In this document: one piece after another, positions 9,710-40,992 of the stretch
Position numbering within the stretch: position 1 is the first letter of the stretch
Layout: every line of letters begins with the position of its first letter
Source: Giardia intestinalis
Lineage: Eukaryota
NCBI GenBank assembly: GCA_000002435.2
Contig: CM018791.1
Length of the DNA stretch: 64,000 nucleotides
Strand: one strand, 5' to 3'
Translations under genes and position numbers: made by a program
Notes under the pieces: generated by a model
Databases searched by the model: none
What the model was told of the DNA's origin: nothing
Seen by the model: only the letters and a program-made list of their open reading frames with translations

Positions 9710-9890
9710 ATAATCTTATTAAAATGTGAATTATCTTTTTCTTATTGTACTTTTTTCACATTTTGCCATCCTCCCTCCAATGATGTTTGTCGTCTTCTCC
9801 AGCCATATATCTACTTTTTCCAAGATGGGTCAACTCATGATTATTACCAACATATAGTATAATCTAAATCATTTTGCACCGAAAATAGTT
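9710..9890. promoter_or_regulatory. AT-rich divergent intergenic spacer (putative bidirectional promoter) between the dynein HC gene and the 2730-aa ORF
   Basis: A 181-bp AT-rich spacer lies between head-to-head ATGs at 9709 (-) and 9891 (+). A/T-rich sequence directly abuts both ATGs. Confidence 0.4.
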
Positions 9891-15800: not shown

Positions 15801-18083
15801 AGAAAGTCCCTACTTGAGAAAATCTCGCTCTTTGAGTTAGACCATAAAGGAATCGTCAAAAAGACAGAAGCCTTGCTCTCTGGAAATGTGTTCTTCCACT
15901 CCTACGATCTAGTGATGAAGTCTTCATTGCAAGACATCAGTTCCTTACGGCGTCATGCTTTTATGCCGTGTGTAACGCCGCGCTCCTACAAATTCTTGCT
16001 AAATCTTTTGATGATTGATACAGATGAAGATTTAGATGAGCCTGGATTCCGTAACACAAACAGTGCAACGCTCATCGGCAGCTTGGGCTCTCTAACTGCA
16101 GATGGCTGTAAAAACGTTCTTCTTTTCGAAATTATTCCTGCAATGCTCCTCAACCACGAGTCTGGGGATTGGGCGCATTCCAGCATTGATCCCGAGAAAC
16201 CTGTCTACAAAATGATATGCTCTGACATCTACATTATCCTGAGGCTTGTGTCTATCATCTGCACCCGTATCGAGTTCTGTTTGCAGATCCTTGAGCGCGT
16301 GCCGAGCGACTGCAGGCAGGTAGGGAAATATGGAACCCGCTCAATGACTCCATTTCCTCTGTCGCAGTACAATGGTCGCTGCGCCGCTGGCACGCTATTC
16401 GGCTATGATGACCTTGATTACTCCACCCCGTGTGGGAACCGTATCTTTTACTCAAGCAATCAGTACTTTCAGCTCTCTGATACCTATAGCCTGTCCAGAT
16501 GCCGATGCGGCGCAATTCGATGCCCTTATTGCGGTGGGCTGGGCTCCAATATGGGCCTTATAAGCGGAAGTTACTTGCCCGGAGGGACTTCTCAATACGT
16601 TGAGTTACAGTCGGGCTCCAGCAACGGAATATTCTCCTCCAAAATTCGTACATCCGGTGCGTGTGCAGAAGATAAGGAGGCGTGCCCTGACACGTATGGT
16701 TTGCCTAGTTGCTTGCATGACAACTACTCAGAAGACGAGTGTCTGTTGAATACGTCCAATAGCAAGACCTATCACTGCTATCCGGTGACACAAACACTCT
16801 TGTACAAACTTCAACCAGCCCTTCCACTTCCCTTCAATCTGTTAGAGACGCTTAGTGTGCTACCTCAGACGACCTCTCTGCCAGACCATAACGGAATGGT
16901 ACAAGATATCTCTGCGCGAGCCTCGGCCGGTTCCAAGCAGACGCGTGGATATAAGGGAACATACCAATCGCACAGATGGGCCAAACAGGATTATTCCGGG
17001 GACTTTATTAATGAGGAGGGTAAAAGCACGAAAGCTGGTGCACAACAGCTCCTTGAAAGGGCCAAGCTTCTCTGTCAGCAGCCTGCCATCTGCGCAGGAG
17101 AAGGCTACCCTGTCGGCAACTATGGTGAACGCCTTGTTGACCTTGTTCATCACCTCCCTCCCTTGGATGCGTATACATTTCGAGCTCTTTCTACTTCGAG
17201 CGAGTACGCTACGAATCGGTTTGTGCAGGAATATCTAAATAGCTCTCTTGGACACGAAAGCGTATGCGTGAGTTCTGCCGAAAAGGACTACAATCCTGAC
17301 ACGGCTATCTCTTCCACAGTCGTGCTGAATGAAGACATGTACACACCACCTGCAACAGACTTGTGCAGTTACTTTCAGGGGCATCGCTACGCTAGGATTC
17401 TAGACTGCGATGAAATCAGCGACCCTGTTCTCACATATTTGTTCGACCCCAATATCTTTTCCCATGTCTATCTGTACCAGCCTCCTCCCGACTTCGACAG
17501 TTTACCAGCTGATGAGGTATTCAAGGAGCTAAGGGATAGGCAATTTCAAAAGTATCATCGCGACAGTCTATGGCCACTTGAACAACATATCTTACCTTCA
17601 CACATCCAAAAGAGGCCAGGGACTCTCCCCACTAGCGCCGACTTTCGGGGGGAGCTTCTCTTTCTACTGCGTCTTATGCAAATGCATGTCCACCAGACCA
17701 AGGAGGGCGTTCTGTCGTCAGAGTTTACTCCATACATGTACGGGTTGCTTGGGCTTTATGCCTACCCTCTTCTCAACCTTCGGAGGCCGATAACGACACT
17801 CTTGCGACGCTTGGAGTCTTTTTGCGCCCGCATAGGCACGACAAGCATGAACATCAACTATCTCTCGCTGTACCGCCCCTCGAAGACTAACATTCAATCT
17901 CCGCGTTCCACAATTCTCTTTCTCTTTCTTGTCTTCGCAACGCGTTTGCCCTCCCCTTATGGAAACCTCCTTCCGCTTTCCTTGCCCTCAACAGCATCGC
18001 CCTCGGACGAGCTCATGATCATCGTCGAGAACACCGGAGGACTGGCCCGGTTCTCCGGTATCACCAACACCGACAGTAAATAA
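9891..18083 (+). CDS. Very large hypothetical protein (2730 aa), no recognisable domain
   Basis: A single uninterrupted ORF starts at an ATG with AT-rich upstream sequence (aaaatagttATG). It has one strong hydrophobic segment (LLFGLVCLSFISSKLIYVLLKYINLVF, about aa 395-420). It has a Cys cluster CRCGAIRCPYCGG near aa 2200. Internal ORFs on other frames are short. Confidence 0.75.
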   Translation: MPPIVVPLAMTSSQGDQQVFSLRTLHRVAEHGSFLTYDFSDDADSVIAGLEASCPDSFANQTIPTLSSDQCDMLNDYLDLCNTIHAQSSVFHEVHSASDDLQSNIDYAMFLLTKGTETAPILRTILPKLQDTVGNSAGNCSDVEPAEINVSYDQMPLSVRNYLFSPYLFVHTSKVAFKVTDKKMSTWFVTTGPPQLVQATLTSIVRPDGVTITNTDEQYLTLFSSLTDLDTVIYASIDSMYSELIVDLPMCPDYFLVAYLQPIFIPHDSVITGDSSGASITPVNLMETGITFQLRNNWVDINNFLAPGLSTCAFPTVLSDEDAATLEWVVTKMNQIKWSSTISQTPKTKTTSATVTEIYEEYVSLMKAERNEAYAAEMSRLVMSYIDGVIDFNPLLFGLVCLSFISSKLIYVLLKYINLVFDPPLGLLRSLGLPEAFPVLHNLTSVTDCIYGIDYVYSNIIDDKERLEQTTRPLSVLKNNRPGHSLQYNKHYRTYYSSFFLPTYQNFTRTQSLSVPLYNIFARDVVSTKQRRFIPLNELSLMEGKAPHDIIYVDGTRPIKFIKDGNGIQLVEISIRDRTDTNIPIRVPHDLYQNVVNMVDRSASTEQCRAELQRIIEGQFKLSKQLNGERNYNSTRAITYQKRQKAAKQSATDEEGHSDNSLNSTTSPTCLTASLDHGKISSTKKVTQDSSFIPILCEPRDTAVLLSGATDISTTMVGPICHACFNAQAASSNILGVIQTMIDESIFTYQDVLGATPPSLVHFDGRKDTTNNPAQTEVICDDSTDPTSLVTKTTDDKLELVVDDQKLYSYRDIAIVRASCNPSVTVTDLDSYRDICIQFSLMIERSRLCVYFPSFTYHDYISLGLYNNKLHYLHTNSGFHLGFLRFLFDSAFTTEIDRFSGNSLGTSTTQSSSHAFCVTDDLIRLVQASDCENYAPVLIDLFNKFVLLNTYFISRNISFINPVFSILDATCSSQLATESSNNEHQDPSECPDPFASDFIDPASFITLSVGDTSSSSHPINSANSLVQLFSPFQHHGDYTNQSALVYAILTLRFLTTFMGGSLALQEAIRLYTIAASYCMISSIPPLKCSVNLAEVNSDSNALLDETMTLCGSKSSILLINEHNRHLGFSESAQALSLVDHFNEDILHGGYKATINNTFTPLSPFLLSKEYCPSVVQDSYIHTNLRSLQYIRWLSGSNSFRPHTFEESDSAGYDSAVAYIKDSANITDQVSQAFLLEGSMRRKIESWPHYGVSYRVCPNYDASVNGTALPSAKMVIWSKDDIPTDYMSSKLLADSVFNRGKYVTIPYGSESYGSVNPHELGAAANESKQSAKASSAEHDKKKDSKAKNMDADRELDSLADTLSLIKQIQLNPAYPCDASAFTALYTSTDRPVTIKYHFMATTGQEASMHHIEEEQICFGMLRVYINALLRILIEWIAIYAPSLLCYYDVSLSATAASAPPDNTRFCPFGFNRFVSSALLEDEAEYAAGTLLKKDLVSESIASKDRANTPTILCSPFLASSLKEDLSAGKECPWQQDSQPAMSLAQYFSEADQAGSADDVQTRIGRKSLYSDQFLSDHASVLASYRKIESAMATDKILSATDIVNSTDRSLRFLAYPYIVFPVNNTTHYSRIYSKDRFQESDWSQLSPPPPRIHTTLQFFICQVYTGSDVLFSLFTEPLITVPLLARTMQNLLSRAMLAEQRASYVWRTICPDSHFTNCDQSYMCMSSWDKKVLTPKAILQDFKRRNNDLIQGLDPELWPITLDPSHMHLGRLVYPSYYRASSNLEDQAALFNRWGSGMISTLISSGTRNLQNEPQSTLLINFIPRINPYRISHEFLQKSQLIVPGIISPSYATAELVRLYRTYFFSMDEEFVRLVLCRSSMLFSCITTGFTTKTNQSVYDLCGSNPVSEDIYYFATLGYKHLQNAVNTKQYTYPAPISLLDIEQVISGIELTYSSYVSNQKYSEYHYTDEERKSLLEKISLFELDHKGIVKKTEALLSGNVFFHSYDLVMKSSLQDISSLRRHAFMPCVTPRSYKFLLNLLMIDTDEDLDEPGFRNTNSATLIGSLGSLTADGCKNVLLFEIIPAMLLNHESGDWAHSSIDPEKPVYKMICSDIYIILRLVSIICTRIEFCLQILERVPSDCRQVGKYGTRSMTPFPLSQYNGRCAAGTLFGYDDLDYSTPCGNRIFYSSNQYFQLSDTYSLSRCRCGAIRCPYCGGLGSNMGLISGSYLPGGTSQYVELQSGSSNGIFSSKIRTSGACAEDKEACPDTYGLPSCLHDNYSEDECLLNTSNSKTYHCYPVTQTLLYKLQPALPLPFNLLETLSVLPQTTSLPDHNGMVQDISARASAGSKQTRGYKGTYQSHRWAKQDYSGDFINEEGKSTKAGAQQLLERAKLLCQQPAICAGEGYPVGNYGERLVDLVHHLPPLDAYTFRALSTSSEYATNRFVQEYLNSSLGHESVCVSSAEKDYNPDTAISSTVVLNEDMYTPPATDLCSYFQGHRYARILDCDEISDPVLTYLFDPNIFSHVYLYQPPPDFDSLPADEVFKELRDRQFQKYHRDSLWPLEQHILPSHIQKRPGTLPTSADFRGELLFLLRLMQMHVHQTKEGVLSSEFTPYMYGLLGLYAYPLLNLRRPITTLLRRLESFCARIGTTSMNINYLSLYRPSKTNIQSPRSTILFLFLVFATRLPSPYGNLLPLSLPSTASPSDELMIIVENTGGLARFSGITNTDSK

Positions 18084-18103
18084 CGCACACAAAACGTTCA
18101 CTA

Positions 18104-19705
18104 CTACAGTTGACTCGTGAACCCACTGATTCCAGACTGAACAGAGAGGCTGTCACCATCCGAGAGGCGGATAGCTTTGCCACGCTTTGGCTTGCTGCCA
18201 CCGCCGCCGCCGAAACAATTGCCTCCATTCTTCTTGTGGCAGAGGAACCACCAGCAGAGGAATCCGGCAACAGCTCCAATGATCAGTAGTGGCACTATAA
18301 CAGAGGTTGCCACCAGGCCGGACTTGAGAGTACAGGTCGCGCCGTTTCCTGTGTAGCTACCACCACATTGACAGGAGTAATTGCCCGACGCGGTGTTAAG
18401 CACACAGTCCCCTCTTCCGCTGCAGACGACCCCCTTTTGAACACATCCAAGTGGATAGCAATTCCCGTCCTGTGCCCGGATGGACCCGAAGTGGCACCTG
18501 CACTTCCAGAGTCCGTCCACGCCATAGCGGCAATCCCCTCTGTTGTTGCAAACGGTCTTAATGCGTCCATCGCCTGTAATCACACATTTATTATGCGTCT
18601 CATCATTAGGTACACAGGCTCCATCTATGTTCATGGAGTTCCTATTGCATGAGCAACCCCACTCACCATATTCATTTTCTACGCAGACTCCAGCGCCATT
18701 ACAAACATAGACACCTGTGAGACACTCATCGGGAACACAGACGACACCTGCGTCACCTGGTCCTGCCGGGCGCTCGCTGTATGGATAATTGCAGGACTCA
18801 CAAAGCGGTCCTGAATATGCGCCTGGGCACGCACACATACCAGCTTCCTCCCCTTCAGAGATGCAAGTACCATTGTTCATACACTCACCGCCATTGGTAC
18901 ATAGAGGGGAGGAGCAGTCTTCTCCTGTGTAACCATCATTACAAAGGCACCTATACCCCAACATCCCAATACACTGGCCATTGCCGCTGCATAAACTGTC
19001 CTCAGTTCCTCCCCAATATCCACAATTAGCTATTCCACAATCTGATCCCGCGAAAGAAAGATGCGGGCATGTGCATATTCCAGTATCCGTATTACATGTT
19101 CCTCCATTAGCACAGTCTCTGTTACCAGCACATATAAAGGAGTCGCATGCCTCCCCACTAAACCCTGGCCGGCATCTGCAGCCAAAAATTTGCCCCAGCC
19201 TAGGCGGCGTTCCCGGGAGCACAGTACATTCTCCTCCACCAAAGCACAAGTATGGATTGTTCCTAGTTATATTTTCACGCCCGCACGTGTCGTAGTAGCA
19301 ATCGCGTCCGCTATAGCCATGGAAGCAATTGCAATGACCACGATAGGTGTGATCGTCGTCAAGAATACACTGGCCTCTGCCGTGACACACTGAGTCAGAC
19401 TTGCATGTGAAGGCCTCACAGAACGGGCCCGAAAATCCAGATCTACAAGAGCATTCAAACAGGCCATGGCCCGTCTCCACACACTCACCGCCCATGCTGC
19501 AGTACACGAGATGAGTACTGAAACGCGTCTGTATTAATTCAGCGTGACACAAGTTCTTGCCCTCACAATTGTCACCCAAAACTCCATCAAAACAGACACA
19601 TTTGCCCCACAGACATCTACCCAATTGGTTGCAATCCTCATCTGTAGTGCACGTGCTCAGAAATATATCTACAAGGCCACATAGCAAAAGCAGCTGGGAA
19701 AGCAT
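18104..19705 (-). CDS. Cysteine-rich EGF-like type-I membrane protein (high-cysteine membrane protein / VSP-like), 533 aa
   Basis: N-terminal signal peptide MLSQLLLLCGLVDIFLSTC. About 13% Cys with repeated CxCxxG(F/Y)xGxxC EGF-like modules (CRCRPGFSGEAC, CSCRSGFSGPFC, CNCFHGYSGRDC). Single C-terminal TM segment LVATSVIVPLLIIGAVAGFLCWWFLC, then a short tail containing KRGKA. Confidence 0.8.
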   Translation of the reverse strand: MLSQLLLLCGLVDIFLSTCTTDEDCNQLGRCLWGKCVCFDGVLGDNCEGKNLCHAELIQTRFSTHLVYCSMGGECVETGHGLFECSCRSGFSGPFCEAFTCKSDSVCHGRGQCILDDDHTYRGHCNCFHGYSGRDCYYDTCGRENITRNNPYLCFGGGECTVLPGTPPRLGQIFGCRCRPGFSGEACDSFICAGNRDCANGGTCNTDTGICTCPHLSFAGSDCGIANCGYWGGTEDSLCSGNGQCIGMLGYRCLCNDGYTGEDCSSPLCTNGGECMNNGTCISEGEEAGMCACPGAYSGPLCESCNYPYSERPAGPGDAGVVCVPDECLTGVYVCNGAGVCVENEYGEWGCSCNRNSMNIDGACVPNDETHNKCVITGDGRIKTVCNNRGDCRYGVDGLWKCRCHFGSIRAQDGNCYPLGCVQKGVVCSGRGDCVLNTASGNYSCQCGGSYTGNGATCTLKSGLVATSVIVPLLIIGAVAGFLCWWFLCHKKNGGNCFGGGGGSKPKRGKAIRLSDGDSLSVQSGISGFTSQL

Positions 19706-20696: not shown

Positions 20697-21018
20697 CGCG
20701 AACTAAATTTTCGGCAACGCTTGAAAAAGAAGAGAGGACTTCAGAACAATAATTCACTTGGATGCAATAAAGTAGAATCCTTGAGAATGGCTCTCTATCC
20801 CGCACTCGTTGCTGCCGCGTATTATTTTGAAGTATCCGTTTTCTCCCCACTCTTCTCCCCAAGAGTTACGAGCAATCCAGTAGTCCATATGAGTCTCATC
20901 TCTCGTTTCATCATCTCTAGAGGTATCTGTTCTATAGCCAAGAAGCTCAACTCCATGCGTTTCGGTTTAAGTGATAGGAGGGTTTTACAGATAGCGTCCA
21001 TAAGTACACACGGATATC

Positions 21019-26556: not shown

Positions 26557-28242
26557 ATGGACGACGTATGGGCGTGTAAGGCCGTTCCTCAGGCTTTTTT
26601 GGACAACTTAAAGAAGCTTGGATATACAGACCTCCTTCCTATCCAGCGGAGAGTCCTGGAGATATGGTTCAACGGAGCTATCCCCGAGAAGGCCGACGAA
26701 ATCCGACGGATTATTTGCAGCTCAATGGCTAACAATATGTTCATTGCAAGTGCAACTGGATCTGGAAAGACACTCTCTGCCATCCTGCCCCTTGCTCTTG
26801 AGGCCTTTGCAGGATTAGACTTTGTAGCACTATTTGTGGTCCCAACAACCCACCTTCTTACTCAAATCTATCATTTACTTCTCAATCTCTTTCATGATGT
26901 GCCATCTGTGCGAATATTCCGAGCAATGGATTGTCTCGGCGCAACCCTTTACGAAGACCCCGCCCTTCTTCGACTAGATCCAGACATAGTAGCTGCTCTA
27001 AAGGAGCACCATGAGGTACTGGAAAGTACTGATACTAATACTTCCATGTTCATAGATGACCATCTGGTAAAACGATTTCTAGACTCCATCACGAAACAAC
27101 TCGCTACAACGCTTCCCGACTTCAGAAATATCATTGAGTATGGAGAGGATAGGACATCGTACATCATCTGCGGTACCCCCGGGATCGTCTCTGCTCTTCT
27201 TACGGCAGTCAAGCCGGCCTCGGGCACAGGCATCGCCTCCCGTGGAGTAACCTCGTTCCTGAAGCTTCGGCACGTGGTGATAGACGAGGCAGACCACATC
27301 CTTCTCAACGACAACACGTCCTTCCTGGCGCTCATAAGGGAGTTCTTCGCTCAACGGAACTCCACGGCCGTCTTCCGCGTGCCTCTCTTCTTCGCCCAGC
27401 GACACCGCCTTGGGCTCCCGACGGACAGGTTTGTCTTCCTCTCTGCGACCATGAAGTACCGGGCAAGTCTGCTCGAGAACATGGGCCTCCACGGCGGGTG
27501 CATGGTGGACTTCGACGAGGGCCACGCGCGCCTTGCCCTCTCGCCCAACGTCGAACACTTCGTCGTCCAGCTCAAGCGGACCTACTCCGAGATAGACATC
27601 GCATACCTGGTCTTCAGGTTCCTCTGCAGCCCCGCCGGGTCCATCACCAACTCGAGGACCACCCTCCTGCCCTGCATCGTCTTCGTCAACTCCAGGCACA
27701 CCGCGCAGCGCATCGCCCACCTGCTGTTCCTGATGATGATCAAGGTTTACAAGGAGCTCCGGTACAGGATAACGCTGGTGGCCCAGGGGCACGTCTTCCG
27801 GAGGCCGAACTTCGAGTCTGTTCCAGCCATCTCCAACGAGTCCCTCGAGGAACACCCTGCAACTATCGTCCTGGCAACTGATAACTTCGCCCGTGGGCTC
27901 GACCTTCCTGCGGTTCGCTCGGTGGTCAACTTCGAGCTTCCAGAGTCGCTGGCCACCCTCACCCACCGCGTGGGAAGGTGCGCGCGCGGCCTGAACAGCG
28001 GGGTCGCCATCTCAGTGCAGCGGAGCGAGGTCGAGTACAAGTTCGACACGCTGGTCAACTTCGATCCGAGCCGGGTCGTCTCCATAGACGAGGAGAGCCT
28101 CTGCGACTACCGGAGCACAGAGGGGCCGCGGCTGTCCGACTTCTCCATCGGGGACAGCGACGTGCTGGAGATCTCACGGAGGTTCAGCGAGAACATGGAC
28201 GTCTACCTGACCACCCTCTACGACGAGGAGTTCGGGCGCTAG
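26557..28242 (+). CDS. DEAD-box ATP-dependent RNA helicase, 561 aa
   Basis: Motifs I-III: Q-like LLPIQRRVL; motif I ASATGSGKTLS; motif II VVIDEADHIL (DEAD); motif III FLSATM (SAT). Motifs V-VI: LATDNFARGLDLP; HRVGRCARG. AT-rich initiator ccaatttaaatactATG. Confidence 0.8.
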   Translation: MDDVWACKAVPQAFLDNLKKLGYTDLLPIQRRVLEIWFNGAIPEKADEIRRIICSSMANNMFIASATGSGKTLSAILPLALEAFAGLDFVALFVVPTTHLLTQIYHLLLNLFHDVPSVRIFRAMDCLGATLYEDPALLRLDPDIVAALKEHHEVLESTDTNTSMFIDDHLVKRFLDSITKQLATTLPDFRNIIEYGEDRTSYIICGTPGIVSALLTAVKPASGTGIASRGVTSFLKLRHVVIDEADHILLNDNTSFLALIREFFAQRNSTAVFRVPLFFAQRHRLGLPTDRFVFLSATMKYRASLLENMGLHGGCMVDFDEGHARLALSPNVEHFVVQLKRTYSEIDIAYLVFRFLCSPAGSITNSRTTLLPCIVFVNSRHTAQRIAHLLFLMMIKVYKELRYRITLVAQGHVFRRPNFESVPAISNESLEEHPATIVLATDNFARGLDLPAVRSVVNFELPESLATLTHRVGRCARGLNSGVAISVQRSEVEYKFDTLVNFDPSRVVSIDEESLCDYRSTEGPRLSDFSIGDSDVLEISRRFSENMDVYLTTLYDEEFGR

Positions 28243-31200
28243 GCGCTACACGCCCTTGTGCGGAAGGTTCAGGTTGAGGGGGCTGTGGAAGATGTACTCC
28301 GGCGCGCAGAAGTAGTACTGCATGCAGTACCGGCCGAGGAAGAAGATGACGATGGCCAGGGCCCCCACCAGGACGTAGTTCCACGCGCTGACCTCGAGGG
28401 CCTCGCACATCGTGCCCCCGTGCGCGTCGACCGTGTCCAGCCCGTTCACGCACCGCTTGACCTTGCTGCTGAACGGGGAGGCGCGGACGGCGTCTGCGAT
28501 GGCGACCTTCTGGGCCTCGTCGGGCGCGGAGAGGAAGAGCGGGTGGACGCCGTCGCGGTCGGGCCCGTAGAAGCGGGGCATCGTGTACTCGACGGTCAAC
28601 TCGTGGCAGAGCGAGTTGGAGCCGCGGCCGATGTAGTAGTAGCCCGAGACGCCCCAGCCGGTCCCCCACGAGTTGCGCAGGATCCAGACGGGCCGGCCCT
28701 TGTGGGCCCCGTAGCCGACGAGCATGACCTGGTGGTTCGTGGTCGCGCGCACGCACTTGACGTCGGGGAAGACGCCGCCCTTGTAGAGGTTGAACGTCAG
28801 CGCAGAGGCGACGACGGACTCGTAGTCCTTGTCGATCGACGTGTCGACGCCGGACTCTGTGTGCATGGCCGCCGCGACCCCGACCCCGCGGGCCAGGACG
28901 TTCATGACGTTCCGCTCCCACTCGGCGAACTTCCCCTTGTCCATCTCCCCGACTATGGGTCCCGAGGCCGGCACGCCCTCGTTCCGCAGGATCTGGTAGA
29001 CGCCGAACTTCTTGGGGGTGCCTGAGCCACCATTGACATCATACTCGTATTCATCGCTACCTGCAGCCCCAGAATTAGAAGAGCTGCCCTTCTTCTTCAT
29101 CGGCATGGAGACGAAGGCAGGGTTGAAGTCTCCTATGTTGGTGCCCTGACACTTAGTACCATCGTCTGGGGCGGCCTTCTCGGGCGTCGCGTACTCCCTG
29201 TAGATGCACTCGGACTCCTTCGCGAGCTTGCTCAGCTTGTTGACGAAGTCTGCGATGGCGCGGAAGTAGTTCCCGCCGTTGCAGTAGTTCCCGCCGATGA
29301 GGTTGTCGAGGAGGAACTGGACGGAGAGGCGCAGGGTGGACGCGCTGTAGGACTTCCAGTTCTCGGGGATGTCGGTATACTCTTTCTCAGTACGATTTTG
29401 AACAGTTATCATTGTAGCGCAGTCAGTACTCTTCTGACTGTCATCCTGACTCGCAGGGGCCGAGCAGTTGCAGAAGTAGTTCGACGGAAAGGGCTGGGGA
29501 TCGAGGTACTTCCCCCTCGTGTAGAGGTCTGCGTCGACGAGCATCAGGTTCTCGAGGACCTCGATGGTCGTGAACTCGTAGCAGGAGCCGCACAGGCCCT
29601 GGTCCTTCGCGCGGGTCACGAGGCCCACCTCGCGGAGGTCGACGGAGTGGGGGAGCGTCCGCTGCCTGTCTTTGACGTTCATGTCCCGCACGTCGACGAG
29701 GAAGAAGCTGTCCTGCTTCTTGTTCTTGTCGTCAGCGTTGGCACTCTGTGAATTAGCTTGAGTGTCTCCCTTCAGGTCCGGCCCCAGTTCGTATGCATCG
29801 ACGTTGCAACCCTCATACTTATTGGTTTTATTAGTCCATTTGCACGCATCTGCAGCTGCGCCCCACTCGCCACCCCCCAGTGACCGGGGCGGGAGGAGGC
29901 CGGCGCGCGGGTGGCGGTCCATCCGGGACGTGATCCCGAAGGTGACGTGCTCGTGGCCCTCCCGGCGGAGCCTGCGGAGGTGCTCGAGGTGCATGCAGAA
30001 GTTCCGCTCCGCCTCCAGCCGGTCCCCGGGCGTGTCGTAGGCCTTCCCGTAGAGGCCGACGAAGCGCTCGAAGGCATGCTCGCACGCCATGTGGATGCTG
30101 AACGGGTCCCGCTCGGCCGACGCCGCGCAGAGGAAAGACAAGGTAAGCAGCAACATCCGGTCCTTTTTTGGGCCGCGGGTAGGTTAGCCGTGTGCGGGAC
30201 TTGCACACCCTACCGGGCGGGCGTCCTGTGACACCTGGCCGCAGACAGGAAGAGGAGCCCGAAGAAGACGGCCGTGCTCGCCGTCACCCCCGCCACGGCC
30301 CCGATGTTCCTCACACGACAGTCACACATATCCCCGTGGTAGCCCTCGGCACAGACACAGGCGTCCTTGTAGCACTCCCCGTGCCCTGTGCACACACTCC
30401 CAGCCAGACGGGTGTTCAGGCACTTCTTGCTGGCGCACAGCTGGCCATGGGGGACCGCGTCCTCGTCGCACTGGCACGCAAGGGCGGCTGGAGCGTCCCC
30501 GACAATCCTCCCCGAACCCCCACAGACCAGTCGCGTCTTGTTGGCGTATAGCTTCACCAGATTGTGGGGCGCACAGGCCCCATCGACGGCCGTCATGCCC
30601 TTGTCGCAGAGGTCGCAGTGCCTTCCAACGTAGCCCGGGTTGCACTGACAGGTCCATGCACCCGTAGCGTTCTGTACACACGTCCCGCCCCTCGCCTTGG
30701 GCGTCCAGTTGCAGGCAGCCCCGTTCTTCACGCACTGGGCGTGCACGCACGTGCTGTTCAGCATCACGAAGTCGTCCTCACACTTGCACAAGTACTCTCC
30801 ATCACTGTACAGGCATTCTCCGTGCGGGCACACAAGACCCGTGTCCGAAACACACCCCGCCGGGGCGCACCCGTGGTCCGGAATGTGCTTGAATGGCGGC
30901 ACACACAGACACTGGTGCCTCGCCGTGGAGTGGTCCAGTCGGCAGAGCAGAGAGCTCGTCAGGTTTGCCACGAAGCCGTCGGCGAAGATCGTGCTATTGT
31001 TGTTTCTGATGCTCTTATCAAGCATGTGGGGGTATCCGCAGAGCCGCTCTCCAACGACGCACTCGGTCGGGTAGCACAGCCCTTCCAGAGGAGAGTAGTC
31101 CTGGGGACAGGTGCCGTTGGAGGGGTGTACGTTGACCACGCGCAGCGCAGCCTCTGGCGCTGTGTGCTGCTGGCCCTGCGTCTCCTTCTTCTGATCCGCT

Positions 31201-31400
31201 CTAGCTGCGGCGTTCTGGGAGTCAGACGAGCCCGCGGGTTCGTGGTGGAGCATCCGTCCAGGCAGGTGCTTGCGGGTTGTCTTGGCTGTTGGCGTCGGCT
31301 GCTGATGTTGCGCGTCAGTGGGAAGGCTGCTGCCCTCGAGAGAAGCGGCACTCTCGCACGCAGACCCGGAGAACCCTGCATTACAGATGCAGCCATCTCT
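27300..31400. other. GC-rich compositional island (GC and GC3 far above the flanks)
   Basis: By eye the sequence switches abruptly to G/C-ending codons near 27.3 kb (inside the helicase ORF). It returns to about 48% GC near 31.4 kb (inside the large HCMP ORF). Many spurious long ORFs appear on all frames in this interval, which is the usual symptom of stop-codon depletion in GC-rich DNA. Confidence 0.6.
28246..30156 (-). CDS. Papain-family (C1) cysteine protease, cathepsin-like, enlarged (636 aa)
   Basis: Signal peptide MLLLTLSFLCAASA. ERFNIN-like pro-region fragment (EAERNFCMHLEHLRRL). Catalytic Gln/Cys block VDLREVGLVTRAKDQGLCGSCYEF. His block NHQVMLVGYG. Asn block ILRNSWGTGWGVSGYYYIGRG. 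About 290 aa lie between the catalytic Cys and His versus about 135 in canonical enzymes. Confidence 0.85.
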   Translation of the reverse strand: MLLLTLSFLCAASAERDPFSIHMACEHAFERFVGLYGKAYDTPGDRLEAERNFCMHLEHLRRLRREGHEHVTFGITSRMDRHPRAGLLPPRSLGGGEWGAAADACKWTNKTNKYEGCNVDAYELGPDLKGDTQANSQSANADDKNKKQDSFFLVDVRDMNVKDRQRTLPHSVDLREVGLVTRAKDQGLCGSCYEFTTIEVLENLMLVDADLYTRGKYLDPQPFPSNYFCNCSAPASQDDSQKSTDCATMITVQNRTEKEYTDIPENWKSYSASTLRLSVQFLLDNLIGGNYCNGGNYFRAIADFVNKLSKLAKESECIYREYATPEKAAPDDGTKCQGTNIGDFNPAFVSMPMKKKGSSSNSGAAGSDEYEYDVNGGSGTPKKFGVYQILRNEGVPASGPIVGEMDKGKFAEWERNVMNVLARGVGVAAAMHTESGVDTSIDKDYESVVASALTFNLYKGGVFPDVKCVRATTNHQVMLVGYGAHKGRPVWILRNSWGTGWGVSGYYYIGRGSNSLCHELTVEYTMPRFYGPDRDGVHPLFLSAPDEAQKVAIADAVRASPFSSKVKRCVNGLDTVDAHGGTMCEALEVSAWNYVLVGALAIVIFFLGRYCMQYYFCAPEYIFHSPLNLNLPHKGV

Positions 31401-34334
31401 GTGACAAACTCCGTGACCACTGCATGCTAAGGCACTGCCTTCTGCAAAGCAAGAATCTGGTTGGCAGGTCCTTTCTGGGGTCGCTCCATGATGGACGCAG
31501 ACGCACTGCCACTTCCCAAGGATTTTTGTGCATACTCCCGCGCCATTGCATTCTGCTGTGCTGTTATCATGTCTGATTGTCAAGCAGTGTTCGGGAGTGC
31601 AGTGCCCGTCGTCTGTGGCTACCGACCCGTGGACACAGGTTGAGCAGAGAGCCCCCGTGTAGAGCTCCTTGCATGCGCATTGAAATTTATGTACCACATT
31701 ATCAGATTGAGAAAGGAAATGTATATGTGCCTCTGTACTGTAAATTGGATAGCTGGTTCTATTAGTCAATGCTACACAGTCTCCGTGGCCAGAGCACTCG
31801 GTAAGTTCCCCAAGCTTGTTCTTTGCAACACATAACCTAGGGACACATCTCTCCTCTATCTTCCTGAAGTCCTGTTTGCAGTGGCAGGAGTGCACCTTGT
31901 TGATTTCACGGCACTCGCCGTAGGGACAGTAGACTCCAGAGACGTTGCATGCCTTGGGAACACAGCCGTAAAGCTTCTCCTGGTTCATGGTTGGAAGGAA
32001 GACATACCCAGGATCACAGACACACTTGAACTCGTTCTGAATCTTGGAGCAAGTACCGTGACCTCCACAAATGGCCGGGGAAGGGAGGCTCGAGATGCAG
32101 GCGTTAGGAACACAGGCGCCAGCCACAAAAGTCTCACCAGGCAAGCACACTATAGAGATTGTTTCGCAGTACTCTCCCTTGACATTTGGGTCACACACAC
32201 ATATGCCTTTAGAGTTGCAGTACCCAGCATTAGAGCAAATCTTGGTAGGATCCACCGGGTTTACGCAGCTCTGCATTGTGCACGTGTTACCGACAACTAT
32301 CGAGGCGGGATTACAAAGGCAGACATACTCATAATTGTCTGCACCCTCCTCGACAAGGTGATAAGAGCATTGTCCATGTCCACCACAGACAAGAAGGCTA
32401 GGATTGTGGGAGGACGCAGGCATAAGGCACTCAGGTGGATAACAACGATCATCAATTAACATAGCCTGCGATGAACAATGCTCACAGTGAGTTCCTGTAT
32501 AAGCAGGCTCACAAGCGCAGCCATAGACCATGGTATTCCCAGAGATGCCCTTCTTAATACATTTTCCTGCATTCCTGTTGCAAATGGAATTCCCAAAAGT
32601 TACACAAGAAGCGCTAACACAAATTATACCTTCGTGCTCTTCCACCTGAAGGCCAATGAACCCAGGGTCGCATTGACAAAAGGGCTTGGCACCTGCAGTA
32701 ATACATTTTCCGTTTTCACAAACAGCATTAGTGATAGGATCAATACATGCTGGATGGACACACCCATGTCCGAGCACGAACTGAAAGTCACCTCGGCAGA
32801 GACATTTATAGACAGGAAGGCCAGATGTTTCATTGTAAACCAATGTGTCTACACAGTCCCCCAACCCGTTGCAGATACTACCATCGGTGACACAAGCTTC
32901 GGGTATACAGCTTCCTTGGACATCAAGAGTCCCAAAAGGGCATGATATTAGATTGAGCTCGCACGAAAAACCTCCATACCCAACATCGCAAACACATGTA
33001 CCTCCCTTGCAGTATCCATGGTTGTTACAGATTACATTTGGAGTTGAAGCGTTGAAGCAAAAGGTAGAATAGCAACGATTTTTGTAAGGAATGGCTCCTG
33101 GACTGCAGTGACACTTGTAATCTAGATAGCTGTTGCTCTTTAGGCTGGATGAGGCTTCACACACTCCAAACCCATCACAGACTAAAAGAGAGGAATTGTA
33201 ATTATCCGGTATCTCTCGAAAGCGAACAATTTGTTGCGCTACATTACTCACAGCATATGACAAACAGTTCACGGAAATGCACCTCCCTTGGCTGTCCTCT
33301 TCTGCCTGCACAAATACAAATCCTGAGTTACAGCTACTGCATTTTATACCACCAAAATTATTGTTACATAGACAGGTATCATTTATGCACAGTCCTCTAT
33401 TGTGGCAAATGACCAGTCCTTCGTCTGAAATGGAGCTAACACACGATTGGCTTATGCACGTGCCATCAGAAGCTTGTACATATCCAGGGGAACATACACA
33501 CTCATAATTCTTGGCTGCCTCTAAGAGAACACAGTTTCCATGTGGGCAAACAGCTCCGTCCTTAATGCATTCCATTGGGACACAAAGGTCTGAGCCAACG
33601 GTCTCAAAGCCCTTGTTGCATAGACACTTTGGCTTCTTTCCGTCAACGCAGCGCCCATTTGACCCACACACAAGCCCGCGGGACAGGCACTCATCTGGAA
33701 AGCAGTCAGATCCTATACGAGTATAACCTTCATCACAGAAAACTAGTGGCTTTTCTAAAGTGCACAATGCGCCATTATGGCCTTTGTAACAAACACACTT
33801 CATGTTTAAACAGACGCCATTGCCACCACAGATTTCACCGGTTTGTGAAATGCAGGATTGATGGATGCAGACACTGCCCATGTGTAGGTATCCTGGCTTG
33901 GTGCAATTACAACTGTAATGCCCGTTGTCCAGAAGAATTGGGTGGCCTCCTCCGCCACAAACTTGAGAAAGGCTAATGTCTGTCGGATGCTTTATAGTAC
34001 ATAAGATAGGAACACACACATTATCAAGTAACATAGCTGTTTTAGGGTTGCAGGATTCACAATGCTCGCCAAGATGGAGCAAGTCACAGACACAACCCAT
34101 CCTGCCATTATCTTTATTGACGCAAGCACCACCGTTATTACAAATGCCTACCTCTGTTTTACAAGCTAGATCGTAGCAGAGACCCGGGCCAGGGCTATAG
34201 AAACCATCGTAACAGGTACAACCCAGCCTGATGCCATCCTGCTCTTCACAAACGCCATGGTTGCTACATACAACTCCATCGCTAGTGCATGGATCATTTG
34301 AGAGGAATGCAGATAATAAAGTCAACGCCAGCAT
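30210..34334 (-). CDS. Large cysteine-rich EGF-like type-I membrane protein (HCMP-like), 1374 aa
   Basis: Signal peptide MLALTLLSAFLSNDPC. Dozens of CxxC / CxCxxGYxGxxC EGF-like modules. Single C-terminal TM segment AVAGVTASTAVFFGLLFLSAA followed by an 8-aa tail RCHRTPAR. AT-rich initiator upstream of the ATG at 34334. Confidence 0.85.
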   Translation of the reverse strand: MLALTLLSAFLSNDPCTSDGVVCSNHGVCEEQDGIRLGCTCYDGFYSPGPGLCYDLACKTEVGICNNGGACVNKDNGRMGCVCDLLHLGEHCESCNPKTAMLLDNVCVPILCTIKHPTDISLSQVCGGGGHPILLDNGHYSCNCTKPGYLHMGSVCIHQSCISQTGEICGGNGVCLNMKCVCYKGHNGALCTLEKPLVFCDEGYTRIGSDCFPDECLSRGLVCGSNGRCVDGKKPKCLCNKGFETVGSDLCVPMECIKDGAVCPHGNCVLLEAAKNYECVCSPGYVQASDGTCISQSCVSSISDEGLVICHNRGLCINDTCLCNNNFGGIKCSSCNSGFVFVQAEEDSQGRCISVNCLSYAVSNVAQQIVRFREIPDNYNSSLLVCDGFGVCEASSSLKSNSYLDYKCHCSPGAIPYKNRCYSTFCFNASTPNVICNNHGYCKGGTCVCDVGYGGFSCELNLISCPFGTLDVQGSCIPEACVTDGSICNGLGDCVDTLVYNETSGLPVYKCLCRGDFQFVLGHGCVHPACIDPITNAVCENGKCITAGAKPFCQCDPGFIGLQVEEHEGIICVSASCVTFGNSICNRNAGKCIKKGISGNTMVYGCACEPAYTGTHCEHCSSQAMLIDDRCYPPECLMPASSHNPSLLVCGGHGQCSYHLVEEGADNYEYVCLCNPASIVVGNTCTMQSCVNPVDPTKICSNAGYCNSKGICVCDPNVKGEYCETISIVCLPGETFVAGACVPNACISSLPSPAICGGHGTCSKIQNEFKCVCDPGYVFLPTMNQEKLYGCVPKACNVSGVYCPYGECREINKVHSCHCKQDFRKIEERCVPRLCVAKNKLGELTECSGHGDCVALTNRTSYPIYSTEAHIHFLSQSDNVVHKFQCACKELYTGALCSTCVHGSVATDDGHCTPEHCLTIRHDNSTAECNGAGVCTKILGKWQCVCVHHGATPERTCQPDSCFAEGSALACSGHGVCHRDGCICNAGFSGSACESAASLEGSSLPTDAQHQQPTPTAKTTRKHLPGRMLHHEPAGSSDSQNAAARADQKKETQGQQHTAPEAALRVVNVHPSNGTCPQDYSPLEGLCYPTECVVGERLCGYPHMLDKSIRNNNSTIFADGFVANLTSSLLCRLDHSTARHQCLCVPPFKHIPDHGCAPAGCVSDTGLVCPHGECLYSDGEYLCKCEDDFVMLNSTCVHAQCVKNGAACNWTPKARGGTCVQNATGAWTCQCNPGYVGRHCDLCDKGMTAVDGACAPHNLVKLYANKTRLVCGGSGRIVGDAPAALACQCDEDAVPHGQLCASKKCLNTRLAGSVCTGHGECYKDACVCAEGYHGDMCDCRVRNIGAVAGVTASTAVFFGLLFLSAARCHRTPAR

Positions 34335-38793: not shown

Positions 38794-40992
38794 ATGTCTC
38801 AGATAGACAAGCTCATTCCGATTGTCAACTCCTTGCAGGATGTCTTCAGTGCCATAGGGCAGGACAAGACGAATATCGACCTGCCGCAGATCACCGTCGT
38901 CGGCTCCCAATCTGCGGGAAAGTCATCGGTTTTGGAGGCTGTCTGTGGGCGCGACGTTCTCCCCAGGTCTGCCGGCATTTGCACGCGGCGCCCCCTGATC
39001 CTCCAGCTGATTCCGACAAAGCCCGGTCAATTTGTCAAGGACGAGAAGGGCAAGACATACGAGGAGTGGGGCGAGTTTTTACACACAAAGGACAAAAAGT
39101 TTGTCCACTACCAAGAGATTTGCAAGGAGATCGTCGCAGAGACCGATAGGGTCACGGGCGGGACACTCAACGTCTCCCCCCTCCCGATCCGCTTGAAGCT
39201 TTTCTCCCCTACCGTCGTTCCCCTCACGCTCGTCGATCTCCCCGGTCTCGTTAAGAACGCTTTGCCGGGCCAGCCAGCGGACATCGACGTTCAGATCAAG
39301 AAGTGCGTTTACGAGTATATCCAGAAGCCGAACGCCGTCATTCTTGCTGTCTCTGCTGCAAACGCCGATCTCGCAACTTCTGACGCACTGCAGGCTGCGA
39401 TTAACTGCGATCCCAAGGGTGACCGCTCCGTCGGCGTTCTCACAAAGATCGACATCGTCGACAAGGGAACAGAGGCAACGGTGGTGTCGATTCTCCGGAA
39501 CGAGGTGCACTACTTCAAGTTGGGCTGGATCGCTGTCATGAACAGGTCCCAGAAGGACATCGACGCTCAGAAGACGATTGCGAAGCACCTGCACGACGAG
39601 GAGGAGTTCTTCCGCACTCACGATTACTATAAGCCTCTGGCTGCACAGAGCGGAGCCAAGTACCTGGCGAGACGGCTCAACCAGGTCCTCATCAACCACA
39701 TTCAGATTGTCCTGCCAGACCTTAAAATGAAGGTCCACCTCCAGCTTGACAAGTATTCCAGGGAGCTGGCATCCTATGGACAGCACCTTGAGGGTCGCGC
39801 AGAGATGGAGCGTGCTCTCCTTGGGCTCATATCCTCCTACGAGAAGGAGTACAAGGCCATCCTCGATGGTTCATCTGCCGGTGCGTCTAAGAACGAGCTA
39901 TATGGTGGTGCCCGTATCTCCTACATATTCCAAAGCGTCCTCCCCAAGATGTTTGACACAATCAGTATCCAGGAGATCCTCAACGGCGAGGATGTCCGCA
40001 CACTCATCAGAAACTCCTCTGGTACCAGGTCGAGCCTCTTCCTTTCTGAGAGCGCCTTTGAATTGCTTGTGCAGAAAGTTGTTCGCAGGCTCGAGGGCCC
40101 GTGTAAGCACTGTCTCCAGCTGGTCAAGGCTGAGCTCATATCCATTGCCAAGTCCATCCCAACACCGGAGATGAAGAAGTATCGCAGGCTCTGCAACGAG
40201 TTGGTCAACACGTGCATCAAGCTTATTAACGATCTTACAATGCCGACTGGGAAGTTCCTCCAGGACCTCATCCACTCCGAGCTGTGCTACATTAACACCC
40301 TGCACCCCGATTTTGTCGCTTCCCAGGAGTTTAAGGGACACATTGACGGCCAGAGGAATATGGCAAATCTAGACGTCTCGAATCAGGGCTTTGGCGAGAG
40401 TAACTTCGGTGGTCCGGGCGGCCCCGGCATGGGCGGCTTTCCCCCTGGTGGACCTGGCGGTCCAGGTGGTCCCGGGGGACCTGGGGGGCCTCCGGGTGGT
40501 CCTGGAATGAACCGCGGCCCTGGAGGACCTCCAGGCGCACCAGGAGGCCCCGGTGGGCCCATGAATCGTGGCCCCGGCGGTCCTGGGGGACCAGGTGGCC
40601 CAGGAGGACCCGGCCCTCAACAGTTCAACGAGTCTGTGCCGGAGAAGATCAAAGCTCAGGGTCCCCTGTCGGAGGCTGAGAAGCTTGGTGTTGACCTCAT
40701 CCCGCGTCTGATGAGCGCATACTATCGAGTTATTCGCAAAAAGATAGAGGATTCTGTTCCGAAGGCGTGCATTGCCTTTCTTGTTAAGGCCTCGATGAAC
40801 CAGCTTCAGGAGGTTTTGGTCAGAAACCTTTACTCCGGAGATAAGATCGAGGACCTTTTGTGCGAAGATCCCTCCATTAAGGAGAAGCGTGTCGCATGCA
40901 GAGAGCTCGTCGATGTTATGCAACGCGCAAGCAATATTCTCGATAAGATAGGTAACATCCGCAACGTCGAGGACCTTGCCAAGAAGGACTAA
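38794..40992 (+). CDS. Dynamin-related GTPase, about 732 aa, with Gly/Pro-repeat insert before the GED
   Basis: The ORF-track start 38791 is a GTG. The ATG is at 38794. DLIPIVNSLQDVFSAIG...LPQITVVGSQSAGKSSVLEAVCGRDVLPRSAGICTRRPLILQL is a near-identical dynamin N-terminus with G1 P-loop. LTLVDLPGL (G3). VLTKIDIVDKG (G4 TKxD). C-terminal GED-like helix. Confidence 0.9.
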   Translation: MSQIDKLIPIVNSLQDVFSAIGQDKTNIDLPQITVVGSQSAGKSSVLEAVCGRDVLPRSAGICTRRPLILQLIPTKPGQFVKDEKGKTYEEWGEFLHTKDKKFVHYQEICKEIVAETDRVTGGTLNVSPLPIRLKLFSPTVVPLTLVDLPGLVKNALPGQPADIDVQIKKCVYEYIQKPNAVILAVSAANADLATSDALQAAINCDPKGDRSVGVLTKIDIVDKGTEATVVSILRNEVHYFKLGWIAVMNRSQKDIDAQKTIAKHLHDEEEFFRTHDYYKPLAAQSGAKYLARRLNQVLINHIQIVLPDLKMKVHLQLDKYSRELASYGQHLEGRAEMERALLGLISSYEKEYKAILDGSSAGASKNELYGGARISYIFQSVLPKMFDTISIQEILNGEDVRTLIRNSSGTRSSLFLSESAFELLVQKVVRRLEGPCKHCLQLVKAELISIAKSIPTPEMKKYRRLCNELVNTCIKLINDLTMPTGKFLQDLIHSELCYINTLHPDFVASQEFKGHIDGQRNMANLDVSNQGFGESNFGGPGGPGMGGFPPGGPGGPGGPGGPGGPPGGPGMNRGPGGPPGAPGGPGGPMNRGPGGPGGPGGPGGPGPQQFNESVPEKIKAQGPLSEAEKLGVDLIPRLMSAYYRVIRKKIEDSVPKACIAFLVKASMNQLQEVLVRNLYSGDKIEDLLCEDPSIKEKRVACRELVDVMQRASNILDKIGNIRNVEDLAKKD
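40411..40617 (+). repeat. In-frame Gly/Pro-rich repeat (GGPGGPG...) encoding the dynamin insert
   Basis: About 69 codons made of (GGN CCN)n units with synonymous third-position variation. Encodes GGPGGPGMGGFPPGGPGGPGGPGGPGGPPGGPGMNRGPGGPPGAPGGPGGPMNRGPGGPGGPGGPGGPGP. Confidence 0.6.

Follow-up and report, generated by a model that had tools for sequence, protein, structure and literature searches.

Elevated GC content is a recognised signature of converted tracts (PMC2720389), and it has been described for the mammalian histone, Hsp70, DDX19A/B, TUBG1/2, and BMP8A/B genes (PMC2720389, citing Galtier 2003 and Marais 2003), in which paralogues are closer to each other than to their positional orthologues. 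Each of these genes is a mosaic of converted and divergent parts, with the GC content of third codon positions (GC3) raised only in the converted part. In Giardia intestinalis WB, GC rises of several kb, tied to variable multigene families and synteny breaks, were described as high-GC islands in 5-kb windows; these were associated with variant-specific surface protein (VSP) genes, and a role in VSP regulation was suggested (Franzen et al. 2009, PMC2723961). The GC richness of ribosomal DNA (rDNA) has likewise been ascribed to a GC bias in conversion between repeats (Escobar et al. 2011, as invoked for Giardia rRNA in a passage of PMC10123126), while horizontally acquired genomic islands are known for a sharp compositional contrast with their surroundings. 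Here, we analyzed a stretch of 64,000 nucleotides of G. intestinalis WB (contig CM018791.1 of assembly GCA_000002435.2), hereafter called the window, which contains a GC-rich island of about 4 kb. The island begins inside a DEAD-box RNA helicase gene, spans a gene for a cathepsin-like cysteine protease, and ends inside a gene for a high-cysteine membrane protein (HCMP). We consider it probable that the island was produced by GC-biased interlocus (non-allelic) gene conversion among dispersed copies, bounded by the edges of paralogy.

The locus shares with the mammalian genes the closeness of paralogues, the mosaic of converted and divergent parts, and the restriction of raised GC3 to the converted part. 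It differs from them in that the unit is dispersed in four copies carrying truncated pieces of neighboring genes, in that the compositional step falls inside otherwise single-copy genes, and in that the host is a tetraploid, binucleate protist. Meiosis has, to our knowledge, never been observed in Giardia. Unlike the islands described in 2009, this one lies in a syntenic housekeeping neighborhood without a VSP gene, and its edges could be resolved inside open reading frames (ORFs) and linked to paralogy and biased substitution. The rDNA is not protein-coding and is arranged in tandem, for the most part at the ends of chromosomes (PMC7000408), whereas the four dispersed copies studied here are protein-coding, so that their third positions allow a direct test of substitution. 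Compared with acquired islands, the borders here cut ancestral genes, orthologous sequence is found in all assemblages, no mobility genes occur at the locus, and only silent sites differ. Our literature search found no report of GC-biased conversion in Giardia protein-coding genes, nor any study of this locus; the process proposed is thus of a known kind, in an organism for which it is undocumented in the literature searched.

The three proteins encoded at the island locus match WB C6 proteins exactly, on a contig of 1.97 Mb. Measured in 1-kb windows, the GC content was 0.585–0.660 over positions 27001–31500, compared with 0.44–0.51 in the flanks and a mean of 0.49 for the window. In 50-codon blocks, the mean GC3 was 0.85 inside the island (n = 25) versus 0.50 outside (standard deviation, 0.09; n = 248). 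A change-point test of GC3 for each ORF, using 500 codon permutations, placed a step from 0.46 to 0.87 at 27208 in the helicase ORF (z = 10.3, p = 0.002) and a step from 0.45 to 0.78 at 31376 in the HCMP ORF (30210–34334, minus strand; z = 11.1, p = 0.002), while the protease ORF between them had an overall GC3 of 0.88. By block, GC3 in the helicase was 0.34–0.62 over the first 200 codons and 0.72–1.00 thereafter, and in the HCMP it was 0.30–0.68 over approximately the first 1000 codons and 0.70–0.92 over the last 375 or so. No comparable step was found by the change-point tests in the other genes of the window, the next largest (z = 4.3) being that of a dynamin gene. The GC-rich stretch is therefore genuine and statistically strong. 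A first-pass annotation made from the letters had put the island at 27300–31400, which lies no more than 100 bp from the computed change points, and had described the affected parts of the three ORFs correctly; the GC and GC3 profile that it proposed as a check showed significant steps at both borders, rather than the absence of a step. Across these borders, GC1 and GC2 were nearly constant, the shift being confined to third codon positions. Because GC1 and GC2 were unchanged, the domain structure of the helicase protein was set aside as a cause of the step.

For comparison, we used contigs from P15 (assemblage E; contig 97, L001, and contig 133, ACVC01000133, L004), DH (assemblage A2; AHGT01000004, L005; contig 63 with a full-length helicase, L009; and the copy 4 contig, L010), assemblage B (GS, L002, and a B-like metagenome contig, L007), an A-like metagenome contig (L008), a 76%-identical contig (L006), and a G. 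muris-like contig (Logan SRR30592944, L003). Alignments were pairwise and five-way, and DNA was read for two P15 copies and three DH copies of the repeat. In these three DH copies, one of the P15 copies, and a copy from a metagenome, the helicase 3' end, the HCMP 3' end, or both are present as truncated pieces. The island appears, from these comparisons, to be one copy of a segment of about 4 kb that is present about four times in the Giardia genome. The protease cluster, defined at 90% identity or more, contained four distinct proteins each in WB, DH, and P15. The helicase clusters included C-terminal fragments, two of which, from DH, adjoin protease copies, and a WB helicase fragment (KAE8305603, 263 amino acids) has an accession number adjacent to that of a protease copy (KAE8305602). 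Truncated 3' copies of the HCMP gene likewise stand beside the protease in DH, reaching window position 30769 in L009 and, as remnants, 31115 in L010; at the DH type I locus, an HCMP 3' fragment of 193 amino acids adjoins the protease. No paralogous copy of the HCMP 5' 986 codons was found among the loci read, and helicase codons 1–217 are also single copy, with a GC3 of 0.46 compared with 0.87 for codons 218–561 within the repeat. A search of the 64-kb window by BLASTN and TBLASTN revealed no second copy of the island, the sole match being a Peptidase_C1 relic at 20808–20966.

The limits of homology were then set against the change in composition. The P15 contig L004 and the DH contig L005 matched the window from its right flank to 27110, beyond which both carry a different sequence, common to the two over about 350 bp, and the metagenome contig L008 has the same junction. 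The left limits of homology were accordingly 27110/27111 for these three contigs and 27858 for L010, which matches 27858–30395 with remnants to 31115. L009 matches leftward from 30769, and rightward of this point it carries a reverse-transcriptase remnant and a VSP gene. The union of the paralogous matches, 27110–31115, approximates the GC island, and on the left the GC change point and the paralogy edge lie within 100 bp of each other. The truncated helicase and HCMP fragments elsewhere are equally GC-rich. At all four helicase-side junctions read (DH type II, P15 type II, metagenome, and DH copy 4), the GC content fell from 0.59–0.63 to 0.45–0.50 within 600 bp, indicating that the copies are GC-rich against their own surroundings. 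The first-pass annotation had proposed a regional process such as GC-biased conversion or recombination with a GC-rich paralogous or allelic tract; the proposal of a paralogous tract and of biased conversion was borne out by the four protease copies per genome with their helicase and HCMP fragments, by the exchange of sequence among them, and by the A/T-to-G/C bias at third positions described below.

The copies within a lineage have evolved in concert. The two P15 copies, which represent both junction types (contigs 97 and 133), were 99–100% identical in most 200-bp windows, whereas the identity of WB to P15, that is, of assemblage A to assemblage E, was 93–96%. When sites were grouped, 121 supported grouping by lineage, and grouping by locus type was supported by four substitutions and the shared deletion of a 45-bp in-frame segment. 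Since this deletion and the type II junction are common to DH and P15, assemblages A and E separated after the duplication. The WB protease paralogues are 95–98% identical at the protein level, compared with 91.8% for the same-position pair WB_a/DH_I. More than 20 runs of alternating DH_I-like and DH_II-like states were counted along WB_a, which argues for repeated short conversion tracts rather than a single crossover. The identity between copy types was lower near the repeat edge. Multiple copies, grouping by lineage despite an older duplication, mosaic tracts, and raised GC with edges at the limits of homology were thus all found at this locus, which is the pattern of concerted evolution.

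Substitutions were polarised by parsimony, with assemblage B as the outgroup. At third positions of the island core, A/T-to-G/C changes occurred at 0.21–0.28 per site and G/C-to-A/T changes at 0.044–0.051 per site on the A and E lineages, giving an equilibrium GC3 of 0.83–0.85 on both, close to the observed value of about 0.88. In the HCMP 3' part, the corresponding values were 0.61, 0.11, and 0.84 on the A lineage and 0.30, 0.19, and 0.61 on the E lineage, whereas in the single-copy HCMP 5' flank they were 0.20, 0.28–0.31, and 0.39–0.42; the A/T-to-G/C rate of the 3' part on the A lineage was three times that of the flank. This part has a GC content of 0.61–0.67 in WB and DH, 0.54–0.60 in P15, and 0.48–0.56 in GS, and it is the most diverged stretch between A and E. 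Its GC content and divergence are consistent with biased fixation having occurred recently along the A lineage. Among the four assemblage A copies, a derived G/C allele was found in 2.78 copies on average, compared with 2.10 for a derived A/T allele (one-sided Mann-Whitney test, p = 0.0016). Both substitution and spread among copies, as polarised by parsimony, were therefore biased from A/T toward G/C.

These data bear on an explanation in which conversion carries the composition without causing it, copies located in variable regions with VSP genes and retroelements, made GC-rich by something else (e.g., a regional mutation bias or chromatin state), overwriting the window copy by unbiased conversion. 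VSP genes and a reverse-transcriptase remnant do adjoin the DH copies, whose flanks have a GC content of 0.56–0.61, and VSP regions of WB have been described as high-GC islands (PMC2723961; bioRxiv 10.1101/2022.03.07.483299). The helicase-side flanks of the dispersed copies, however, have a GC content of only 0.45–0.50 with a drop at the junction, and unbiased conversion does not account for the wider spread of derived G/C alleles or for the equilibrium GC3 reached on both lineages. We regard this explanation as unlikely.

The coordinates of the island, its edges, and the genes in and around it are collected in Table 1.

Table 1. Features of the GC-rich island and adjoining genes in the window.
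Feature	Coordinates	Strand	Remarks
GC-rich island	27110–31376	.	Part of the locus with paralogous copies elsewhere in the genome; from composition and homology edges
Paralogy edge ("type II junction")	27110–27112	.	Leftward, L005, L004, and the metagenome contig share a different sequence
DEAD-box/DBP6-like RNA helicase, 561 amino acids	26557–28242	+	WB KAE8302841 (superfamily II helicase); Pfam DEAD and Helicase_C; homologues; WB protein identity
45-bp in-frame segment between TTCTTCGC direct repeats	27343–27387	+	Missing from both type II copies (DH, P15)
Membrane-anchored papain-family (cathepsin K/L/S-like) cysteine protease (predicted), 636 amino acids	28246–30156	-	KAE8302842 = XP_001704953 = AAK92150; core of the repeat
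Protease hypervariable patch 1, codons 101–150	29707–29856	-	GC3 0.48–0.68
Protease hypervariable patch 2, codons 226–275	29332–29481	-	GC3 0.64–0.68
Protease hypervariable patch 3, codons 326–375	29032–29181	-	GC3 0.52–0.68
High-cysteine membrane protein group 2 (1374 amino acids), 3' 389 codons	30210–31376	-	KAE8302843; GC3 0.78
High-cysteine membrane protein, 5' 986 codons	31377–34334	-	Normal composition, GC3 0.45; internal control

Selection on codon usage offers another source of G/C-ending codons, in which the protease would be highly expressed with optimal codons ending in G or C and the ends of the neighboring genes would be affected via overlapping transcripts. Giardia optimal codons reportedly do end in G or C, with GC3 varying widely with expression. 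Within the protease, GC3 was 0.96–1.00 where the paralogues are homogenised and 0.48–0.68 in the hypervariable patches (rho, -0.79 to -0.85), so that it peaks at conserved residues, as such selection would have it. The steps nevertheless lie inside two other ORFs, an equal GC richness is seen in the truncated fragments of helicase and HCMP at other loci, which are probably nonfunctional, and the extent of the island varies among assemblages together with structural breakpoints. At four-fold sites, moreover, the frequency of G was 0.33–0.44 in the island versus 0.18, and that of C was 0.32–0.54 versus 0.25. This joint rise differs from the dynamin gene, the other GC3-rich gene of the window (38794–40992, plus strand; Dynamin_N, Dynamin_M, and GED domains), in which GC3 is 0.68 overall, 0.72 in the first three-quarters, and 0.55 at the 3' end, and in which the rise comes from C-ending codons only, the pattern expected of codon selection. 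With intragenic steps, G and C both raised at third positions, and fragments equally biased, the locus does not have the gene-wide, gene-confined preference for specific optimal codons that marks a gene under translational selection, and we consider codon usage a very unlikely cause of the island.

For a locus with multiple copies, coincident edges of paralogy and composition, concerted and mosaic evolution, and a GC-biased pattern of substitution, GC-biased non-allelic conversion would operate as follows. A segment of about 4 kb would have been duplicated to dispersed sites, with the island as its ancestral ("master") copy. In the G. intestinalis lineage, a gene for a cathepsin-like membrane protease would have been placed between the helicase and HCMP genes, and this segment, made up of the protease and the 3' ends of its two neighbors, would then have been copied to other chromosomes. 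The copies would trade short tracts by non-allelic gene conversion and so become homogenised within each lineage; with mismatch repair favoring G/C, A/T-to-G/C changes would spread among the copies and G/C-to-A/T changes would be removed, driving silent sites to about 85–100% G/C. Because conversion needs homology, the enrichment would end where paralogy ends, inside both neighboring ORFs. GC3 in the helicase climbs inward from the edge (0.72, 0.84, 0.88, and 0.98), and this gradient and the lower near-edge identity fit the need for flanking homology. If allelic heterozygosity in WB is very low, single-copy loci would offer few mismatches and paralogues a steady supply, which would make the effect local.

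Several points weigh against GC-biased conversion. On the right, some 260 bp separate the GC3 change point at 31376 from the outermost paralogous remnant found, at 31115, and the HCMP-side flanks of the other copies, with a GC content of 0.56–0.61 beside VSP genes, make that edge less clean. The edges of the repeat were inferred from the DH, P15, and metagenome copies, the three other WB copies being known as KAE8303775, KAE8303844, and KAE8305602/3. When all positions were counted, A/T-to-G/C changes were not in excess in the island core; the bias there appears at third positions only, chiefly as fewer G/C-to-A/T changes, which codon selection could also yield. Parsimony with an outgroup as distant as assemblage B can inflate the apparent rate of A/T-to-G/C change in GC-rich sequence, and the reference for codon bias of the selection type is the dynamin gene alone. 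Finally, the link between GC3 and variability in the protease could have its source in stronger codon selection at conserved residues, and part of the pattern in this gene could come from selection on codon accuracy.

We also examined the ancestral arrangement of the locus. The G. muris-like contig carries, in order, an orthologue of the window's 296-amino-acid gene, the helicase, the HCMP, an aminoacyl-tRNA synthetase, and an aminotransferase, without the protease. Since this gene order is shared apart from the protease, the WB order is ancestral except for that gene. The helicase of this contig is 42% identical to that of the window, its HCMP is 1118 amino acids long, as in the G. muris protein, and its GC content is flat at 0.46–0.50 across both genes. 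Judged from this contig, the ancestor lacked a GC island. The absence of the protease at the syntenic position would be expected if a GC-rich gene had been transferred horizontally, and the closest relative found outside G. intestinalis in our protein search, the sole such homologue, was a Hexamita cathepsin L with 25% identity. The GC-rich zone, however, reaches about 1 kb into each of two ancestral genes. The first-pass annotation had argued against simple horizontal acquisition on the ground that the composition ignores gene boundaries, and our data uphold this argument: the borders fall inside the helicase and HCMP ORFs, and both genes have orthologues in the G. muris-like contig and in all G. 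intestinalis contigs. The locus therefore does not have the form of a horizontally acquired island.

That annotation had also raised a chimeric join. In the DH and P15 contigs, the left and right halves of the island do continue into different flanks, but neither border lacks independent support at the contig level. The left border is spanned by P15 contig 97 (L001), DH contig 63 (L009), and the B contigs L002 and L007, and the right border by DH (L005), P15 (L004), GS (L002), and the further contig L006, all from independent assemblies, and the WB gene order equals that of G. muris except for the protease. A chimera is unsupported at either border, and we consider horizontal transfer or an assembly chimera extremely improbable as the origin of the island.

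The comparison with other assemblages, which the annotation had recommended, showed that the island varies in extent as the structural breakpoints do. In assemblage B, helicase homology is present from residue 30 onward, with a VSP gene beside it, and the GC content is 0.59–0.66 through the helicase 5' third as far as this break, where A and E have 0.45–0.48; in the HCMP 3' end, where A is rich, the GC content of B is near normal. As the borders differ among assemblages together with structure, the island is dynamic rather than a fixed acquisition. The helicase frame of GS shifts twice, at L002:11061 and 11371–11402, whereas that of the B-like L007 is intact over residues 30–551; the GS frameshifts could be 454 homopolymer errors or mark a pseudogene.

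The linkage of the flanks differs as well. In WB, the left flank, full helicase, protease, full HCMP, and right flank form one locus. In DH and P15, the right flank and the full HCMP are joined to a truncated helicase, and the left flank and the full helicase are joined to a truncated HCMP, followed by a retroelement remnant and a VSP gene (DH) or the contig end (P15). Either a reciprocal exchange through non-allelic recombination inside the repeat or one 454 mis-join repeated in both assemblies would account for this difference; the flanks of such repeats may be joined in one way in short-read assemblies and in another in a long-read reference. The difference could also be taken as the mark of an allelic recombination hotspot, with exchange among the four homologous chromosome copies or between the two nuclei, GC bias acting on allelic mismatches, and the duplications arising as a by-product of breakage. 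In keeping with a hotspot, 27110 is a rearrangement junction in A2 and E, and a break lies nearby, at about 26644, in B. A hotspot alone leaves unexplained why composition edges equal paralogy edges in each copy and why truncated copies are equally GC-rich, and a very low allelic heterozygosity in WB would leave few allelic mismatches to act on. We judge it decidedly unlikely as the cause of the island.

The protease at the core of the repeat was further characterized. It matched Pfam Peptidase_C1 (PF00112) with 111 bits against a cut-off of 20.7 and PDB entries for cathepsins K, S, and L and cruzain with E values of 1e-16 to 1e-22. The translation contains the motifs CGSCY, NHQV, and NSWG, a signal-like N-terminus, and a hydrophobic C-terminal stretch. 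The predicted protein thus fits a papain-family C1A protease of the cathepsin L/K/S type with catalytic Cys, His, and Asn motifs. The HCMP contains EGF-like repeats by Pfam. The protease family combines a near-invariant scaffold with three to four hypervariable patches, and alternative cassette types (e.g., KWTNKTNKYEGC-like versus TRDSKSNKYTNC-like) were found among paralogues in both assemblages A and E; five B-like metagenome variants differ in the same patches. This pattern suggests diversifying selection on exposed loops, shuffled by conversion. The family as it exists today may be unique to G. intestinalis. No mention of the protease accessions was found in the literature. The first-pass annotation had placed two members of rapidly evolving surface or secreted families at the island. 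This needs correction: the protease is not a fast-evolving gene in general but one of four copies evolving in concert, in which a few hypervariable patches interrupt a conserved scaffold. The full-length HCMP is single copy, and only its 3' end lies in the repeat.

The relic at 20808–20966 (minus strand) in the left flank is 43% identical to protease residues 472–514, and the DH region matching it has an ORF of 44 amino acids with a Peptidase_C1 match (L009:19269–19403); it may be the leftover of an older papain-family gene. Elsewhere in the window, GC3 rises mildly to 0.62–0.65 (p = 0.014 each) at 17601–18559, where the 3' ends of a 2730-amino-acid gene and a 533-amino-acid EGF-repeat gene converge, resembling, in far weaker form, the pattern seen where the helicase and protease genes converge. 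The left end of the window cuts a single open frame (2–9715, minus strand) that is at least 3238 codons long. At the other end, positions 55741–64000 comprise 8.3 kb without an open frame of 150 amino acids or more, unusual for a compact genome, with a GC content of 0.51–0.57; no tandem repeats were found there, nor Pfam matches in its short ORFs. Within it, 61306–64000 is 71% similar to DH L009:3242–5951, which adjoins the reverse-transcriptase remnant, and the region may be a degenerate retroelement or pseudogene array.

Whether, where, and how often Giardia, a tetraploid with two nuclei, recombines is a long-standing question. We tentatively suggest, as a possibility that we hold with less than even confidence, that GC-biased conversion is active in Giardia, that local GC3 records non-allelic or mitotic recombination, that high-GC islands, those of the VSP regions among them, mark past recombination and are not regulatory elements, and that the protease cassette is a second surface family diversified by conversion beside the VSPs. 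If this is true, the GC content of silent sites would be a cheap marker of conversion activity, readable from sequence alone across the entire duplicated fraction of the WB genome, which amounts to 6.9% (PMC7000408), and the high-GC islands noted in 2009 would gain a mechanistic account. The analysis also draws attention to a four-copy family of putative membrane proteases whose variable patches may face the host.

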